Assembly: GCF_018336915.1 (NCBI RefSeq)
Contig: NZ_CP064923.1
Location: forward strand, 4,656,822-4,680,821
DNA from: Acaryochloris marina S15
GTDB lineage: Bacteria > Cyanobacteriota > Cyanobacteriia > Thermosynechococcales > Thermosynechococcaceae
DNA: 24,000 bases
Reading direction: 5' to 3'
Program-made: the position numbers and the translations under genes
The notes under the pieces: model-generated
The model's database searches: none
What the model saw: only the letters and a program-made list of their open reading frames with translations
Told to the model about the DNA's origin: nothing
In this document: positions 14,282-21,991 of the stretch, piece after piece
Layout: each line of letters begins with the position of its first letter
Numbering within the stretch: position 1 is the first letter of the stretch

Positions 14282-15445
14282 ATGGGCCGTGTCGGTGTTC
14301 TATTACTGAATCTAGGGGGACCAGAGCAGCTAAAGGATGTACGTCCTTTTTTGTATAACCTGTTTGCTGATCCAGAAATTTTACGGCTGCCATTTGCTTG
14401 GATGCAAAAGCCTTTTGCCGGGTTTATTTCCACCCTGCGGGCCCGGACGTCTCGGGACAACTATCGGCAAATCGGTGGTGGTTCCCCATTACGACGAATC
14501 ACAGAAGCCCAAGCCCACGCGCTCCAAGATGACTTGCAGGCTAAGGGATGTGATGCTCAGGTTTATATCGGCATGCGTTACTGGCATCCTTTTACCGAAG
14601 AGGCTGTTGCCCGTATCAAACGAGATGGGATTGAAGAGCTGGTCATTCTGCCGCTCTATCCTCAGTTTTCGATCAGTACTAGCGGTTCGAGTATCCGGTT
14701 ATTGGAGAAGATCTGGTCTGAAGACCCAGAATTACAGAAGATTAAGTACACTGTCATCTCTTCGTGGCATGATCGCCCTGGCTATGTGCAGGTCATGGCT
14801 GACTTTTTGCGCCAAGAGCTGGATCAGTTTGCCAATCCTGAGCAAACCACTGTATTTTTTAGTGCCCATGGTGTCCCCCTCAGCTATGTAACTGAATCGG
14901 GTGATCCCTACCAGCAAGAGATTGAGGCCAGTACTCAGCTGATTATGGAGGCGTTAGAACGCCCCAACCCCCATATTTTGGCTTATCAAAGTCGAGTGGG
15001 GCCGATGGAGTGGTTACGCCCCTACACCACAAATGTGATTGCGCATTTGGGTCAGCAGGGGGTTAAAGATTTAGTGGTGGTGCCTATTAGCTTTATCTCA
15101 GAGCATATCGAAACGCTCCAAGAGATCGATATGGAATACCGGCATTTAGCGCTCGAATCAGGCATTGAAAATTTTCGCCGGATGCCAGCCGTCAATATAC
15201 ATCCAGACTTTATCGATACCCTCAGTGAGATGGTGCTGGAATATCTAGACAAGCCCTCTTTAAGATTCTCTCAAGTCTTCCGACCTCAGAAAAAAATTAA
15301 GCTGTATCCCCAAGAGCGTTGGGAATGGGGGATGACGACCACGGCTGAACGCTGGAATGGTCGCTTCGCGATGGTCGGCTTTATTGCCCTACTGGTTGAA
15401 CTGATCAGTGGCTATGGTCCCCTGCATTTAGCGGGGCTACTCTAG
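14282..15445 (+). CDS. hemH: Ferrochelatase with a C-terminal chlorophyll a/b-binding (CAB/LHC motif) transmembrane helix
   Basis: N-terminus [10 protein letters not shown], then [16 protein letters not shown] and [11 protein letters not shown]. The C-terminal CAB helix is [22 protein letters not shown], as in cyanobacterial and plastid type II ferrochelatases. Confidence 0.95.
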
Positions 15446-17274
15446 CTTTGCTTTTTAGACAGTTCGGCTTTCCATAATTTGTGCCAGTGATTGCGCACAG
15501 CACGATTGGCATCGTACATGGTCGAGTATCGTGATTGGATATTAAATTGGCACATCTGGGCAAAAATCTGAATTGTTGCCTGATGGAGTTCGACCATTTC
15601 TGGATCGGTCTCTGAGGCTGATGGTTGCAAAGCTTGTAAAAAGGTTTTGCCAATCACATATTGGTCTGTTTCAGGTTTAAAGGTCCCGTAGCTGATTTCT
15701 GGGGCTAAGACATCCCCTTGATCCTGAAGCAATTTTTGATATTGCGGAAATTGAACACTCAGCTTACTGAGAATACGGGGGACAACACCATAGTCAATCA
15801 GGACTAATTTTTTACCTTTTTCATTGGGCTGCAAGAAGCAATCAGGATGAGGATGACTATGCACCAAATCGGCCTGATGCAGGATTTCAATAATCGTTAA
15901 GACCTCATCCGCAAATTTGCAGGTCATGCGGGGATTTAAGGGAGCATGAGATACCAATACTTTGCTTAGCATTGTCCCTTCGATATGTTCATGAACGATA
16001 TGAAGGACTTCACTATCTTGTAAGAAGCTGAGTACCGGGAGACATTGCAGATGGGGAGCCAGCTGTTTCAAAGTCGCCATTTCGGCTAAAAACAGCTCTT
16101 GCACAGCCTGTAAAACTTCTGGGCTATTGGTGTCTAACCGAAAGGTATGAACAATTCGTAGGGGGGTATCCAGCTCTTGTAGATCTTGGGCGATGGCAGT
16201 TTGTCCGAAGGCATGCTTACTGATGACTTCAACCAACCGAAAGTGCTCATCCCAAAATGAGGGCTGAGGTGCTGCTGCGACGGTAGATTCCAACAACTGC
16301 TGTCGGGCAACTGCCGAAGCATCACGGGTTTTGAGATGACTTTGAATACGAGCCAAAGCAATAGGTAAATCAATCGGCTTCGTGATGTAATCGTTAGCTC
16401 CTAATTCTAGGGCTTCGACCACATTTTCACTGGCATCCTTGGCGGTCGCCATAATCACCGGTAGCTCTTCTTGGGAATAGGTCTGCCGAATGCGCTTCAG
16501 GGTTTCGATCCCGCCAATACCTGGCATCATAATATCCAGCAATACCAGGGTAATCTCGGTGGTGGCAATGAGTTCCAATGCGGCTTCACCACTATCTGCT
16601 AGGGCAACTTCATAGCCCTTCCGCTGTAAACGCCGACTCAACATATCCCGGTTAGCCTCGACATCATCTACGACTAAGAGTTTATGAGTCGTGGGCTCAG
16701 AAACAGGCTTTGGGGGAGGAGAGGAAGGTAGGGATGACGGAGTACTCGCAACGAGGGGAGTCCCCTCACGTCCTTCTTGATGCACCTCGGATGGAGATGT
16801 TCTAGCCGCAGCGGTGACTAACTGTTCTGAGGGTGGAGCAGCGGGGGTCACTACAGCTGCGGGTGTCGCCTGTGCCACAGATTCGACTGGGCGTGGGGAT
16901 TGTTCTGGAGTCCCTTGCAATAAGGTTTCAATTTTCTGCAGCAACCGTTTGAGATCAACGGGCTTAGTATCGTAATCATCACACCCTGCCGATAAGGCTT
17001 CTTCTCGATCACCTACCATGGCATGGGCTGTGAGGGCAATAATCGGAATAGCGGCTGTTTGTTCCCCGGCTTTGAGAGTCCTAGTCGCTTCCCAGCCATT
17101 CATCACTGGCAAACTCATATCCATCAGAATGAGATCGGGCTGCTCTGTGAGAGCCTTCGTGACGCCTTCGCCCCCATCAACTGCAATCACAACATCATAG
17201 CCCCGACGCTTTAATCGGCGTCCGAGCATATCGCGATTAAGTTCATTATCTTCAACTAATAGAATTTTCGGCAT
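15442..17274 (-). CDS. Dual receiver (REC-REC) response regulator with a C-terminal degenerate Ser/Thr protein-kinase-like (pseudokinase) domain
   Basis: REC1 covers aa 3-118 (DN...D52...T82...K104) and REC2 aa 198-312 (DD...D247...T277...K299), separated by an ~80-aa Pro/Ala/Ser linker. The domain at aa ~345-600 aligns by eye to bacterial STK subdomains but carries HSHPHPDC in place of HRDxKPxN and RIVH in place of VxxK. DYG and APE are retained. Confidence 0.85.
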
Positions 17275-17320
17275 GAATGATGACCTCTCTAATCCCTGAG
17301 GTGTGTACGTATTGGCTCGA

Positions 17321-17773
17321 TTAACTGGCCTTAGGCTTAACTAAAATGGCATCACCCTCTACTTTGACGTCATAGCTTTCTAGAGGATCAGAGGCAGGCC
17401 CTTTAACGACCGCTCCATCCGGTTTATAAGTGGAACCATGACAAGCACAAAAAATATCTTGTGAGTCTTGCTTCCAATCTACGGGGCAACCCTGATGGGT
17501 ACAAGTCGGATTGAGAGCATGGAGGGTGTCTGAGCTTTTTGAATCTCGGACAACTAGTACTTTTTGGTTCCCTTTCAAGGTCTGCAGAATGCGACCATTT
17601 TGATCTAAGTCTTGGGTCTGACCCACCTTGATAAACCCATCAGGGGTCGTTTCAGTTTTAGGAGCTGGGGTTGGGGAGGTTGAAGACTGTTGCGTACAGG
17701 CGCCAATCACAACGGAGACGACTCCTGAAATCCAACTTAAGGTCAACCATGACAGAACTTTTCGGCGGTTCAT
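17321..17773 (-). CDS. Small Rieske [2Fe-2S] protein with a twin-arginine-like signal and lipobox (PetC3-like lipoprotein)
   Basis: Rieske boxes CTHQGCPV and CACHGSTY. The N-terminus MNRRKVLSWLTLSWISGVVSVVIGAC has an RRxVL Tat-like motif and an IGAC lipobox. It lies 46 bp upstream of the REC-REC-pseudokinase gene on the same strand. Confidence 0.85.
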   Translation of the reverse strand: MNRRKVLSWLTLSWISGVVSVVIGACTQQSSTSPTPAPKTETTPDGFIKVGQTQDLDQNGRILQTLKGNQKVLVVRDSKSSDTLHALNPTCTHQGCPVDWKQDSQDIFCACHGSTYKPDGAVVKGPASDPLESYDVKVEGDAILVKPKAS

Positions 17774-18185
17774 ACTGAAATCTTAAGGAACGAGATCCAC
17801 AATAGTTTACTAGCTGATGGAAGATTCCCCAGAAAAACATGAGGGAATAAGTGCATGCAGACTAGAACTAGCTTGCCCAGAATAAGGTTATAAACTGAAC
17901 TACAAAAACATTTGTTTGACGACAAAAAAAGGCTAAGAATAGACCTTAAGCACTGATATACATAGGATGGATGGGGGTATTGAGCTTATTTCAAGGAATT
18001 AGCTTTTCTCTCATGAATTCCTGTTATTACGATATTTTTGTTTACAAATATATTGTTGAGAGAGACCCAGATTTGGGCAAACTAAGGATTGAAGGCAGAG
18101 TGCAACCATTGTTCTCGATAGTCTTCTTTAATACTCATGTAAAAAATGCATCGATGGTCAGACAAATGCTATCTCCAGGAGGGTC
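17774..18185. promoter_or_regulatory. Divergent intergenic control region between the Rieske and peroxidase units
   Basis: 412-bp AT-rich spacer between divergently oriented genes. It contains a 7-bp inverted repeat AGGAATT (17994-18000) / AATTCCT (18016-18022) and the AT palindrome AATATATT. Promoters were not mapped. Confidence 0.4.
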
Positions 18186-19211
18186 TTGGGCGTGAACAGA
18201 CTGTTAAAAAAACGCCATCTAGTCTTGATTGTTTTGTTCGCGGTGGCATCGCTACTGTCATTACAATTGGCACGGATGACTGAGCAACCTGTGATTGCCA
18301 AACTGGGGCCACCCGTTACGGCTGCTGGTGATGAGCCAATTGAACCGATCCCGATGCAGGTTTCCTTAAATATGGAAAAAGTGGTTTTGGGTAAGCAGCT
18401 GTTCCATGATCCGAAACTTTCTAAGACGAACAATATTTCTTGTGCCAGCTGCCATGACTTATCGATGGGTGGCACCGATCGCCTACCGGTCTCCATCGGT
18501 ATTAACGGTGAAAAGGGGACGATTAATTCCCCCACGGTCTTCAATAACAGCTTTCACTTTAAGCAATTTTGGGATGGCCGAGCCTCAAGCTTGGAAGAGC
18601 AAATCGAGGGGCCTGTCCATGCGGGCAATGAGATGGGATCGAGTTGGCCTGAGATTATTGGCAAGCTGAAGCAGTCGCCTGAATATGTGAATGCTTTTAA
18701 CGAGCTCTATGACAGCGATATTTCTGCTGACCATATCAAGGATGCGATCGCAACTTTCGAACGCTCCCTCTACACCCCCAACTCTAAATTTGACCAATTC
18801 CTTCGGGGCAATGCTGACGCCTTAAGCAAAGACGAGAAAGAAGGCTATCGACGCTTTAAAGGCTATGGCTGTGTCGCCTGTCACCAGGGCGTGCTGCTCG
18901 GCGGCAATATGTATCAGAAATTTGGGGTTTTTGGTGACTACATCAAAGATCGCGGGGACGAAACCAAAGCGGATCTGGGACGCTACAACGTCACCGGCAA
19001 AGAAGACGACCGCTACATGTTTAAGGTACCAAGCTTAAGAAATATCGCCTTAACGGCTCCCTATTTTCATGATGGGTCCTCTAAAACCCTAGATGAAGCC
19101 GTCAAAATCATGGTCAAATATCAACTCGGTCGCGAGGCAGATCAAGAAGACGTTGACCTAATTATCAAGTTCTTAAATACCTTAAACGGTGAAATTAAAG
19201 AGGTCGCCTAA
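18186..19211 (+). CDS. Secreted di-haem cytochrome c peroxidase / MauG family protein
   Basis: Two haem c motifs, CASCH (aa 86-90) and CVACH (aa 229-233). Family motifs are FWDGRA, VPSLRNIALTAPYFHDGS and MVKYQLG, with an N-terminal signal/anchor LVLIVLFAVASLLSLQLA. GTG 18192 sits 9 nt after AGGAGG and may be the true start rather than TTG 18186. Confidence 0.9.
   Translation: MGVNRLLKKRHLVLIVLFAVASLLSLQLARMTEQPVIAKLGPPVTAAGDEPIEPIPMQVSLNMEKVVLGKQLFHDPKLSKTNNISCASCHDLSMGGTDRLPVSIGINGEKGTINSPTVFNNSFHFKQFWDGRASSLEEQIEGPVHAGNEMGSSWPEIIGKLKQSPEYVNAFNELYDSDISADHIKDAIATFERSLYTPNSKFDQFLRGNADALSKDEKEGYRRFKGYGCVACHQGVLLGGNMYQKFGVFGDYIKDRGDETKADLGRYNVTGKEDDRYMFKVPSLRNIALTAPYFHDGSSKTLDEAVKIMVKYQLGREADQEDVDLIIKFLNTLNGEIKEVA
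18744..18751. repeat. HIP1 palindrome GCGATCGC
   Basis: Exact octamer read in the sequence. Confidence 0.95.
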
Positions 19212-21991
19212 TGCAGAAACAAAAACTTCTAGGCCTCCTCGGGGTCTCCGGTGCCCTGGTCTTGTTTGGCGGCCTGATTGCCAAAAGCTTATCCGTTGAC
19301 AACCAACAGCATCAGCAATATCGCACCTTAATGGCTCAACAGTTGGACAAAGATGCCACTGTTAACCAAAGTGTCCTTAAAGCCAGATATGCGTTATTGA
19401 CCTCCTACGATCCCCTCGTCCGGGCTATGTCCGAACAGCTCGATTTACAGGAGGATCTCAAGCAAGTTCCTGGGTTTATTGGCAATCAACAGACCCTTTT
19501 ATCTCAGCTCAGCGAGAACAACCAAGTCTTTACTCAGAAAGAAGAGTTAGTTGAATCTTTCAAATCCAAGAACGCTATCCTCAAAAACTCCTTAACCTAC
19601 TTACCAGAGCTAGTAAAAGAGGTTCGCACGGGCTCTGCAAAAGGAATATCCGGGGATGAGGCGATTCAGCTGGAAAGCCTATTAGATAATGTCTTACTGT
19701 ACAGCTTGTCGTCAGATGAAGATCTAGTTTCCCAGATCGAAACCCAAATCGCTCAATTAAAGGGTAAAAAATCCAAGGGCATTCAATTGGCCCTTGCCCA
19801 TACCCAGATGATTCTGGAGTACAAGCCCCAGGTCGATGCCTTAACCCGCGATATTCTGAAGCTGCCCACGGCCAAAGCCATCAGCACTTTAGAAACGGCT
19901 TATATCAATCAATATGATGGGGCAACTCAAACAGCCGACCTATTTCGACTACTCAGCTTCGGCTGCTTGTTAGTTCTCGTCAGTGGCGGTGCCTATTTGG
20001 TAGTGCGGCAACAGCGTCGTTCTAGTGAGCGGGTATCCGGTATTCTCAGCAGTTTGACCGATGCCTTTGTGGCTCTGAATCCCCAGTGGCAAATCACGTA
20101 TATCAACGATAAAGCCGCTGAGATTCTGCAAGAAGATCCCGTACAGTTGCTCAACCAAGATTTCTGGCAAAGTTTTCCTGACCTCCTGGGTGCCGATCAT
20201 TTAACTGAGTATCGACAAGCCCTGAAAGAGAAAACCAAGACCTCCTTCGAGGTGTTTTATCCCCCCAGCAAAATGTGGTTGGAGATTCGCGTCTATCCCA
20301 GCGTGGACGGACTATCCTTGTTCTTCCAAGATGTGACGATGCGCAAGGAGGCTGAAGACAGCCTGAAGCAAATGAACCAAGAGCTAGAGACCCGGGTCAA
20401 GGCTCGTACATCTCAGTTAGCATCCAGTATGGAAGCCGCCGAAGAAGCGCGGGAGAAAGCGGAAGAAGCCAATAAGAGTAAGAGTGAATTCTTGGCCAAT
20501 ATGAGCCATGAACTCCGAACTCCCCTCAACGCCATTATTGGTTACAGCGAAATGCTGGAAGAGGATGCCGAGGATATGGGACAAGATGACTTTGTCCCCG
20601 ATTTACAGAAAATTTCTGGGTCGGCAAAGCATCTTCTAGAACTGATCAACTCTGTTCTAGACCTCTCGAAGGTCGAAGCGGGACGCATGGAACTCTATTT
20701 AGAGTCCTTTGAAATCGCCCCCATGGTCAGAACCATTGCTGCCACCTTACAGCCTATTGCCGAGAAGCAAAGCAACATGGTTTCCCTGCATTGTCCTGAG
20801 AATATTGGGACGCTGTATGCTGACCAAACCAAAGTTCGTCAGAGTTTGTACAACTTACTCAGTAATGCCTGTAAGTTCACACAATCCGGCGAAGTGAGCC
20901 TCACCGTATCGGAAGATGCTGGGGAAGAGATTGTCTTTAGCATTAGAGATACTGGCATTGGCATGACCCCAGAACAGCTGGAAAAAGTGTTCAAAGCCTT
21001 TACCCAAGCAGATGCGTCCACTACCCGCAAATATGGGGGAACCGGACTGGGCCTCACTATCACCAAGCAGTTCATTGAGATGATGGGCGGGCATATTTCG
21101 GTAACCAGCCAATATGGCTACGGCACCGAGTTTACGATCCATATTCCTCGCCAAGTGGAATCAGAAACTGCAGCATCCATTCCAACTCCATCTGCGCCCA
21201 TCGAACTGAGTAAGATTTCTTTACCCAAAACGGCGAAAGGACAGCCGGGTGGGACAGTACTCGTGATTGATGATGACGAGTATGCCCGTGACATCATGCA
21301 GCGGTTTTTAACAGATGCTGGTTATGATGCGGTGGTATCGCCTTCGGGGATAGAGGGGCTACAGCTGGCTGAAGATCTCATGCCTGACATGATTATTTTG
21401 GATGTCTTGATGCCAGAACTCGATGGCTGGTCAGTCCTTCAGAATCTCAAGGGCAGTGCCAAATTAGCAGATATCCCCGTTATTATGATGACGATGGTGG
21501 ATGCCGAAAAAGTCGGTTTCTCCCTGGGTGCGACTGACTTCCTGACCAAACCCTTACAGCGAGATCGGCTACTGGAACTGTTGGATAAATATGTCACAAC
21601 AGCAGATCGCAACTGGATGTTAGTGATTGAGGATGACCTGCCTTCCCAGGAAATGCTAGGTCGCATACTCGAACGGGAAGATTGGCCCTACAAAACAGCG
21701 GGCAATGGCAAACAAGCCCTCGAAGTCCTCGGTGATCATGGCGTCCCAGATTTAATTTTCTTAGATCTGATGATGCCAGAGATGGATGGCTTTGAGTTCC
21801 TGAAGGTACTGCGGCAAAATCCAGACTGGCAGAATGTCCCTGTGATTGTGGTTTCGGCGAAAGATCTCACAGCCAGTGAGCGTCTAGAGCTGGGAGATGC
21901 GGTCCAAAGTATTCACCAAAAAGGACAGCTCGATCGCGAGGAATTGCTAGAAGAGGTTCAAGACTTTATCGAAATTGCCGCTGGTAATTAG
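19211..21991 (+). CDS. Hybrid sensor histidine kinase: TM, ~215-aa all-helical extracytoplasmic sensor (DAHL-like), TM, PAS, HisKA, HATPase_c, REC, REC
   Basis: TM1 is aa 6-25 and TM2 aa 245-265. PAS is aa ~275-380. H-box [11 protein letters not shown] (H433), N-box LLSNACKF, G1 IRDTGIGM, G2 GGTGLGL. REC D731 and REC D852. The ATG overlaps the upstream TAA (TAATG at 19209-19213). The DAHL assignment rests only on remembered motif similarity ([21 protein letters not shown]). Confidence 0.92.

Follow-up and report, generated by a model that had tools for sequence, protein, structure and literature searches.

A di-haem cytochrome c peroxidase gene paired with a DAHL-domain sensor gene: a candidate periplasmic redox or peroxide sensing module in Acaryochloris marina S15 and other bacteria

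The known peroxide sensors of bacteria, OxyR, PerR and OhrR, are cytoplasmic, and to our knowledge the sensing of peroxide or redox state outside the cytoplasm is poorly understood. Two kinds of described system come closest to the one reported here. In the partner-dependent sensors TorT-TorS and LuxP-LuxQ, the partner gene adjoins the kinase gene; TorS is a hybrid kinase whose periplasmic sensor is an all-helical double bundle, and it signals by way of a protein bound to it in the periplasm. The haem co-sensors H-NOX and NosP are cytoplasmic b-type haem gas sensors, which are encoded as separate proteins in an operon with a kinase, cyclase or GGDEF protein (H-NOX/HnoK, NosP/NahK); they are thought to control the partner by the ligation state of the haem, and the module is reused with varied outputs. 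In the present study we have analyzed 24,000 nucleotides of the Acaryochloris marina S15 genome (contig NZ_CP064923.1, positions 4,656,822 to 4,680,821 of the forward strand; this whole stretch is called the window, and all positions are given in its numbering). A gene for an exported di-haem cytochrome c peroxidase (CCP) is directly followed there by a gene for a hybrid histidine kinase with a periplasmic DAHL domain, and genes for a Rieske lipoprotein and a REC-REC-kinase-like protein (RRK) lie divergently beside this pair. We give a probability of about one half to the reading that the locus encodes one envelope redox or peroxide signalling pathway with CCP and DAHL as its sensory core.

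The CCP-DAHL pair belongs conceptually with both kinds of described system. It shares with TorT-TorS and LuxP-LuxQ the adjoining partner gene, and with H-NOX and NosP the separate haem protein and the reuse with varied outputs. The partner in TorT-TorS is a solute-binding protein, whereas here it is a di-haem redox enzyme; DAHL is a separate Pfam family, and CCP, unlike the partner of the TorT-TorS kinases, accompanies many output types. The difference from H-NOX and NosP is that the haem protein is an exported c-type di-haem peroxidase, found on the periplasmic side and encoded with a transmembrane sensor.

The CCP gene occupies positions 18186-19211 on the plus strand (341 aa; open reading frame and Pfam) and the DAHL kinase gene positions 19211-21991 on the same strand (926 aa; likewise), and the stop codon of the former overlaps the start codon of the latter (gcc TAATG cag). 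An earlier, sequence-only reading of the window had placed four open reading frames at this locus, with a TAA/ATG overlap within one unit and an AT-rich spacer between the two units. The frames were found again at the same positions, the Pfam search of the four proteins returned the domains that had been described, and both the overlap and the spacer (412 bp, 37% GC) were confirmed. The position of the CCP frame also holds, but its start is ambiguous between TTG at 18186 and GTG at 18192; the gene caller used for an identical public contig (Logan SRR12447961, 14.5 kb) gives a protein of 339 aa. The nearest relative of the window is Acaryochloris marina MBIC11017, with 92% identity in the DAHL region and 95% in CCP.

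For comparison across bacteria, one genome per GTDB species was scanned with an alignment of the DAHL domain, yielding 76 loci, and the neighbours at these loci were identified by tblastn searches, for which the proteins of the window served as queries. The gene immediately before DAHL, in the same orientation, encodes a CCP homologue (45-95% identical) in 69 of these 76 loci, which represent about ten phyla: Cyanobacteria, Acidobacteriota, Beta- and Gammaproteobacteria, Leptospira, Bdellovibrionota, Myxococcota, Armatimonadota, Eremiobacterota, Entotheonella and others. Seven loci have no upstream CCP; two of these are at contig edges and three represent one Acaryochloris paralogue. Of the 67 pairs whose junction could be measured, 51 have a CCP stop codon that overlaps the DAHL start codon, 43 of them by 4 nt and 8 by 1 nt. 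We define the CCP-DAHL cassette as a CCP without the distal His, encoded directly upstream on the same strand with an overlapping or nearly abutting stop and start; the window pair, with its TAATG overlap and a CCP without distal His, is such a cassette. The pairwise distance matrices of CCP and DAHL are correlated (Mantel r = 0.82, exceeded in 0 of 2000 permutations), to which species phylogeny contributes. All-against-all clustering of the flanking open reading frames gave no universal neighbour besides CCP. When the search was started from CCP (tblastn against 72,556 plasmids), a DAHL gene came next downstream in 5 of 11 inspected loci; the RefSeq names of these plasmid genes are "DAHL domain-containing protein", "ATP-binding protein" or "VirA-like sensor kinase". 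Among 1.84 billion representative proteins, a profile search found 1,469 DAHL clusters (50% identity) at E <= 1e-10, and the DAHL domain is N-terminal in all 150 family members listed.

The domain that follows DAHL is variable. Among 61 DAHL proteins, the output is HisKA/HATPase_c in 37 (22 with receivers), Y1_Tnp in 9, adenylate/guanylate cyclase in 6, GGDEF in 4, MCPsignal in 4, EAL in 3 and SpoIIE/PP2C in 1, and a histidine phosphotransfer (Hpt) domain is present in 1. In Leptospira interrogans, for example, a 360-aa CCP gene overlaps a DAHL-cyclase gene by 4 nt. A constant CCP with a varied output is, in terms of gene organization, the signature of a modular two-protein input device. The earlier suggestion that an exported haem protein acts as co-sensor is thus strongly favoured for CCP, which precedes DAHL in 69 of 76 loci whatever the output domain is. 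The same data bear on the simplest alternative, namely a detoxification operon with its own regulator, in which CCP scavenges hydrogen peroxide (H2O2) and DAHL detects another ligand, or H2O2 itself, without contact between the two proteins, and the sole reason for co-transcription is that the sensor controls expression of the peroxidase. A regulator co-transcribed with its target is common, CCP retains all the catalytic, haem-ligand and Ca-site residues of active bacterial peroxidases, and one Acaryochloris DAHL paralogue (L010) has no adjoining CCP. CCP, however, holds its place before DAHL just as firmly where the output is a chemoreceptor, adenylate/guanylate cyclase, GGDEF/EAL or PP2C domain, and since direct control of transcription is not a function of chemoreceptors, cyclases or phosphatases, it is unlikely to be a mere sensor-regulated gene. 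In addition, the order with CCP always first and the stop/start overlap in 51 of 67 pairs are typical of subunits made in a fixed ratio and not of regulator-target pairs. We therefore regard the detoxification operon as unlikely.

Several members of the collection have features of their own. In seven loci (L030-L035 and L040; e.g., L034:10001-11497 and L032:8517-10025), a DAHL protein of about 500 aa continues through a transmembrane helix into a cytoplasmic IS200-like Y1_Tnp (HUH) domain (E 1e-18), and a CCP gene precedes each. A transposase-type DNA-binding domain is an unusual output for a membrane sensor; these loci also hold a gene resembling cyclic-nucleotide-binding mechanosensitive channels and a large adenylate cyclase gene. 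A DAHL-SpoIIE/PP2C fusion in Nostoc minutum NIES-26 (L018:9962-11599) is preceded by CCP with a 4-nt overlap. Leptospira has two CCP-DAHL-adenylate/guanylate cyclase cassettes (L045 and L051, from a metagenome-assembled genome of L. interrogans serovar Manilae; also L047 and L048). DAHL paralogues within one lineage were seen at L007-L010 and L016. Up to three DAHL hybrid kinases are encoded in Acaryochloris genomes: a 1,076-aa paralogue (L007, L008 and L010, from the 5.36 Mb region of A. marina MBIC11017 and from relatives) has no adjoining CCP and keeps all invariant DAHL residues, and another has a CCP of its own, 67-68% identical. Leptothoe has two DAHL paralogues on one contig. A plasmid-borne cassette with a DAHL hybrid kinase is found in Gloeocapsa sp. 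PCC 7428 (L078; plasmid pGLO7428.01, 111459-116467), divergent from genes for a REC-HisKA_3-HATPase kinase and a response-regulator transcription factor, an arrangement that points to a relay of several kinases ending in a conventional DNA-binding output in this strain. CCP homologues are very common on plasmids of Rhizobium, Mesorhizobium and Agrobacterium (67 Rhizobium records). In the one such locus inspected, from Agrobacterium vitis (L086), CCP is followed by a DAHL kinase annotated as "ATP-binding protein" and then by a response regulator. Among plant-associated bacteria, the cassette may be common and have escaped recognition.

The window CCP belongs to PF03150 (CCP_MauG; 199.5 bits against a gathering threshold of 25.6) and has haem motifs CASCH at residue 86 and CVACH at residue 229. 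The closest solved structures are bacterial peroxidases, namely 9QDT (8e-91), 1IQC from N. europaea (3e-85) and CcpA of Shewanella, 3O5C (3e-82), which are 45-55% identical and have in common with it both CXXCH motifs, the inter-haem Trp, the Met ligand and the Ca-site Asn. The entry 9QDT, named "probable cytochrome c peroxidase", is presumably the tri-haem YhjA of E. coli, judged by its name and length. In an alignment of 76 CCPs that includes 1IQC and 9QDT, residues M309, W129 and N114 are kept in at least 97%, and C86/C89/H90 and C229/C232/H233 are conserved; by homology, M309 is the Met ligand of the electron-transfer haem, W129 the inter-haem Trp and N114 the Ca-site Asn.

These comparisons bear on a second alternative, that the di-haem protein uses H2O2 to modify DAHL or the Rieske protein post-translationally, just as MauG modifies methylamine dehydrogenase and MbnH modifies MbnP. 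Such modifiers of the CCP_MauG superfamily are encoded beside their protein substrates, DAHL has an invariant Tyr, Lys and His, and CCP gives partial NCBIfam matches to MbnH (TIGR04039, 173.8 bits) and MauG (TIGR03791, 160.9 bits). These scores are far below the respective cutoffs of 362.85 and 443.85, and the structural matches to MauG (about 1e-21) and to the MbnH-like 6E1C (2e-33) are distant in comparison with 1e-82 to 1e-91 for the peroxidases. Furthermore, MauG has Tyr in place of the Met ligand of the electron-transfer haem, which is conserved here as M309. Maturation of this kind is therefore quite improbable.

One change in CCP concerns the distal His, which in resting classical enzymes is a ligand of the peroxidatic haem and keeps it closed. 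In 1IQC, 3O5C, 1NML and 4AAL, the motif SIGHKW/SIGH.W contains this His, whereas the window protein reads SIGING with Ile at the position. The distal His is missing in all 63 DAHL-linked CCPs from genome loci and in all 5 plasmid copies. Its loss was considered as a unique mark of the DAHL-linked clade and rejected as such; it is also absent from 9QDT, from a 460-aa tri-haem type (L080-L082), whose third haem domain the window CCP lacks, and from a Leptospiraceae type (L088 and the second copy in L048). The loss is thus necessary, but not sufficient, for membership in the clade. By analogy with other CCPs without distal His, the peroxidatic haem probably needs no reductive activation to be open. 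Two residues adjoining the second (electron-transfer) haem motif, Q234 (100% against 0%) and M242 (87% against 0%), separate DAHL-linked CCPs from a small outgroup of nine sequences and, together with the DAHL gene downstream, distinguish the window type from classical CCPs. They give a hint that another partner docks at the electron-transfer haem.

The kinase has the Pfam architecture DAHL-PAS_4-HisKA-HATPase_c-REC-REC, with all domains on the plus strand. The DAHL domain (residues 29-246, positions 19295-19948; PF19443, 192.9 bits against a cutoff of 38) is flanked by two hydrophobic helices, TM1 (residues ~7-25, ~19229-19285) and TM2 (residues ~244-266, ~19940-20008), and is followed by PAS_4 (~20045-20350), HisKA (20477-20683; 73.5 bits), HATPase_c (20822-21154; 107 bits) and two Response_reg domains (21257-21583 and ~21626-21970). 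An H-box His in SHELRTP (residues 432-438), the HATPase_c domain and receivers with a phospho-acceptor Asp characterize it as a hybrid histidine kinase. The sequence-only reading took this protein for a cytoplasmic one, which is incorrect; the two transmembrane helices enclose a periplasmic DAHL domain that it did not recognize. Its count of four intact receivers at the locus holds, and the two of the kinase and the two of RRK all keep the CheY-type residues D/D/D57/T(S)/K.

An AlphaFold2 model of residues 1-270 (pLDDT, the predicted local distance difference test, 88) consists entirely of helices, with long ones in the part between TM1 and TM2. A Foldseek search of the PDB with the model gave only weak matches, the top specific ones being double-bundle sensors: PilJ (7ZJR), McpS-HBM (2YFA/2YFB), TorS (3I9Y) and TorS-TorT (3O1H). 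Seven residues are invariant among 61-67 homologues, namely Y66, D67, F117, K118, N121, N126 and H197, and may form the site at which a partner or a ligand binds. In a third alternative, CCP makes, destroys or gates a small-molecule ligand of DAHL, for example by oxidizing a periplasmic compound or by holding H2O2 below a threshold at the sensor, so that the coupling is chemical and needs no contact. McpS-HBM and PilJ, which the DAHL model resembles, bind small ligands, and the invariant polar residues Y66, D67, K118, N121, N126 and H197 could form a pocket. On the other hand, TorS, which is among the same fold matches, reads a bound protein, the translational coupling and co-evolution of CCP and DAHL exceed what a purely chemical link would lead one to expect, and the present evidence identifies no ligand. 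We consider a ligand-processing role of CCP to be rather improbable.

The Rieske gene (17321-17773, minus strand) encodes a 150-aa, Tat-exported, PetC3-like [2Fe-2S] lipoprotein, which is a short single domain (Pfam Rieske, 58 bits) with a Tat motif (MNRRKVL), a lipobox (VIGAC) and the cluster motifs CTHQGC and CACHGS; the RR motif, the lipobox Cys and CxHxxC/CxCHGS are conserved in 15 Rieske orthologues. Its scores are below the cutoffs for PetC of the cytochrome b6f complex (76.3 against 250 for NF045928; 79.2 against 154 for NF010001), and the best solved structure is PetC3, 5CXM (E 4e-18), which is likewise a short single-domain protein with a Tat signal and a lipobox Cys. PetC3 is described as a cyanobacterial periplasmic lipoprotein with a potential of +135 mV and of unresolved function (Veit et al., 2016, cited by PMC10172866 and PMC12341915), and replacement of Ser by Ala and of Tyr by Phe next to the cluster is linked there to this low potential (PMC10172866). 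The low-potential signature is not present in the window protein, which has CHGSTY (residues 109-116) where 5CXM has CHGAEF; other CCP-linked orthologues have CHGS.F. Since CHGSTY is the Ser/Tyr hydrogen-bond pattern of high-potential Rieske proteins (PMC10172866), the potential of the window protein may be markedly higher than that of PetC3. We call it PetC3-like on the basis of the structural match; it may be the orthologue of Synechocystis PetC3 or belong to a paralogous subfamily.

With 15 loci, all of them cyanobacterial, Rieske is the third most frequent neighbour of the DAHL loci. It lies downstream of the kinase or DAHL gene in L011, L012, L017, L019, L021, L024, L034 and L089, upstream of CCP in L032, L035 and L040, and divergently in Acaryochloris. 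Since it adjoins CCP-DAHL cassettes of either kinase or Y1_Tnp output and is present in cassettes without the REC-REC protein (L031, L032, L034, L035 and L040), the Rieske gene, as judged from these neighbourhoods, tracks the CCP-DAHL pair and not RRK. The earlier view that each unit couples an exported redox protein to a cytoplasmic signalling protein is not tenable in this respect; the Rieske gene goes with CCP-DAHL, and the kinase is a membrane sensor.

The RRK gene (15442-17274, minus strand; 610 aa, open reading frame and Pfam), separated from the Rieske gene by 46 bp, encodes two receivers, REC1 (~16915-17274), which is followed by a Pro/Ser/Thr/Ala-rich linker, and REC2 (~16330-16689), and a C-terminal kinase-like domain (residues 339-610, 15445-16260). 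The Response_reg pair scores 187 bits, and the Pkinase match (34.7 bits) is barely above its cutoff of 31.7. The best NCBIfam similarity, below cutoff, is to the REC-REC stem of PleD-type regulators, which have in common with RRK a tandem receiver stem and an effector, GGDEF in PleD and kinase-like in RRK. Since the tandem receivers resemble this stem, phosphorylation-driven rearrangement or dimerization of the C-terminal domain of RRK is suggested by analogy. The effector has the protein kinase fold, as have Hanks-type pseudokinases, and its catalytic Lys, Asp and Asn are replaced. In alignment with the Ser/Thr kinases 4EQM and 5LOH, the VAIK Lys is His (IVHTF), HRD is HSH and the Asn of the catalytic loop is Cys; the Gly-rich loop (GxGxxG) is missing, and DFG has become DYG, so that the DFG Asp alone is kept. 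Because distant orthologues (L011-L013) retain the Lys, H[ST]D..N and D[FC]G, and L005 is intermediate, the domain is, by these alignments, degenerating in the Acaryochloris lineage, and the ancestral output of RRK may have been Ser/Thr phosphorylation. The designation of this domain as a pseudokinase is therefore correct for the Acaryochloris lineage, where Lys, Asp and Asn are lost, and not for the system in general.

A search of 5.8 billion proteins with the kinase-like domain of RRK found only three close homologues, all from Acaryochloris, and no characterized relative. Public annotations of RRK orthologues (P0121-P0123; L003 and L004, bins of Acaryochloris sp. IP29b) are 408-462 aa long and start past REC1, whereas the open reading frames are continuous over about 610 aa with an intact REC1. 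In the short annotations the start site has probably been miscalled, and the tandem receivers are thereby hidden.

The four genes follow one another on one strand in the order CCP, kinase, Rieske and RRK in L011, L012, L017, L019 and L089. RRK comes directly after the kinase in L013, and a 124-aa stand-alone receiver resembling REC1 takes its place in L020. At the DAHL loci, RRK and CCP-linked Rieske genes are confined to cyanobacteria; the synteny of RRK is that among loci found through DAHL and Rieske. In Acaryochloris (the window, L002-L006, L090 and L091), the Rieske-RRK pair is inverted, which produces the divergent layout. As the genes are co-linear elsewhere and the pair is merely inverted here, the four genes are, on the grounds of their order, one conserved functional set, and the two-unit layout is a local, lineage-specific rearrangement and not a functional pairing. 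The association of the four genes that had been proposed from the window is thereby upheld by synteny both within Acaryochloris and in other cyanobacterial lineages. A chance juxtaposition of the two units in Acaryochloris might be argued from their divergent transcription and from the fact that Rieske and RRK genes are absent from most CCP-DAHL loci. The co-linear arrangement of the same four genes in at least five other cyanobacterial contigs, the position of Rieske beside CCP-DAHL in three arrangements and a conserved motif upstream of both units speak against it, and in view of this synteny we exclude chance for practical purposes.

The spacer between the divergent units (17774-18185, without strand; 37% GC against 48% for the window) was aligned with those of three other Acaryochloris genomes and shows a mean column identity of 82% with invariant blocks. 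The conserved motif, TGGGCAARCTA, occurs there once on each side. The minus-strand copy (17869-17879) precedes the Rieske ATG by 95 nt, and the plus-strand copy (18074-18084) precedes the CCP start by 101-107 nt. The window has no further exact copy, and about 0.02 exact matches were estimated to occur in it by chance. Both copies are kept in L002-L004, and the CCP-side copy also in L005, L006, L090 and L091; the motif is found in addition about 390 nt upstream of the CCP-less A. marina DAHL paralogue (L010). TGGGCAARCTA is a candidate for an operator shared by both divergent units. Co-regulation from the common spacer, which the earlier reading had proposed, receives a hint from this 11-nt motif on both sides. 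Promoter and terminator scans gave counts at or below the shuffle expectation.

Pfam scanning of the four proteins and of the other window open reading frames found no HPt domain and no DNA-binding domain, as the earlier reading had stated for the locus. The other frames scanned are ordinary housekeeping genes (ClpC-like ATPase, cation diffusion facilitator transporter, ferrochelatase and thiamine genes). The ferrochelatase gene (14282-15445, plus strand) is convergent with the RRK gene, and their stop codons overlap (15442-15445). As this neighbour is kept only within Acaryochloris (L002-L006 and L090), its adjacency is probably coincidental.

From the sequences we infer the following contact between CCP and DAHL, signal, electron transfer from Rieske to CCP, phosphotransfer route and output. 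CCP and DAHL would be made in fixed proportion by translational coupling. CCP would react with periplasmic H2O2 or report its own electron supply, and the helical DAHL bundle would read the redox or ligation state of CCP by direct contact and switch the kinase. The membrane-tethered periplasmic Rieske protein would be a dedicated redox partner of CCP, most likely its electron donor, and would couple the signal to membrane or periplasmic electron flux. The kinase would then phosphorylate RRK, with its own receivers as modulators or as a sink; alternatively, an HPt protein encoded elsewhere might intervene. Phosphorylation would reorganize the PleD-like stem of RRK, so that the kinase-like domain engages its partners differently; this domain would be a non-catalytic scaffold in Acaryochloris and may still phosphorylate targets in other lineages.

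Several points weigh against such a pathway. CCP appears to keep everything needed for a plain detoxifying enzyme, and the loss of the distal His is not confined to the DAHL-linked clade. The fold matches of DAHL are weak (E ~4e-3 and above, TM-score ~0.3), and the hybrid kinase is not accompanied by an HPt domain. Five DAHL loci with adequate upstream sequence, three of which are L007, L008 and L010, have no CCP, so that DAHL may function without a cis-encoded partner. Rieske is absent from most non-cyanobacterial CCP-DAHL loci and from many cyanobacterial ones, and it is therefore an accessory and not a requirement. Finally, the sole H2O2-induction data found for a related organism concern another ccp paralogue. 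The Leptospira ccp gene LIMLP_02795 is strongly induced by H2O2 and controlled by PerR (PMC7567364). It was considered as functional evidence and rejected; the primers used for quantitative reverse transcription PCR match neither L045 nor L051, LIMLP_02795 is thus a different paralogue, and the downstream gene LIMLP_02800 is not induced (PMC7567364). With these points taken into account, the detoxification, ligand-processing and MauG-like alternatives are still rated below the signalling pathway with CCP and DAHL as sensory core.

A wider proposal can be put forward tentatively, with less confidence than the one for the locus itself: CCP-DAHL would be a widespread, undescribed class of periplasmic haem sensor, consisting of an open-haem peroxidase docked on DAHL, with Rieske as the cyanobacterial electron donor. 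In such a class, H2O2 or electron supply would control kinases, cyclases, cyclic di-GMP enzymes, chemoreceptors, PP2C phosphatases and IS200-like DNA-binding domains. RefSeq already names the two members of the pair ("cytochrome c peroxidase" and "DAHL domain-containing protein"), and in a search of open-access full texts and bioRxiv we met with no paper that describes what DAHL does or that pairs CCP with a sensor. A sensor-domain family whose dedicated partner is a periplasmic c-type di-haem peroxidase would be new among the partner-dependent sensors and haem co-sensors.

A periplasmic haem peroxidase wired to a transmembrane sensor would be a new answer to the question of how bacteria sense peroxide or redox state outside the cytoplasm, and the modular CCP-DAHL input could serve as a part for periplasmic H2O2 or redox biosensors. 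RRK represents a response-regulator family in which a kinase domain visibly loses catalysis in one lineage. If the proposal is true, the PetC3-type Rieske family, long orphaned, gains a first physiological role, and the DAHL domain, which spans many phyla, six or more output types and about 1,470 clusters and is now just a database name, would gain a role as well.

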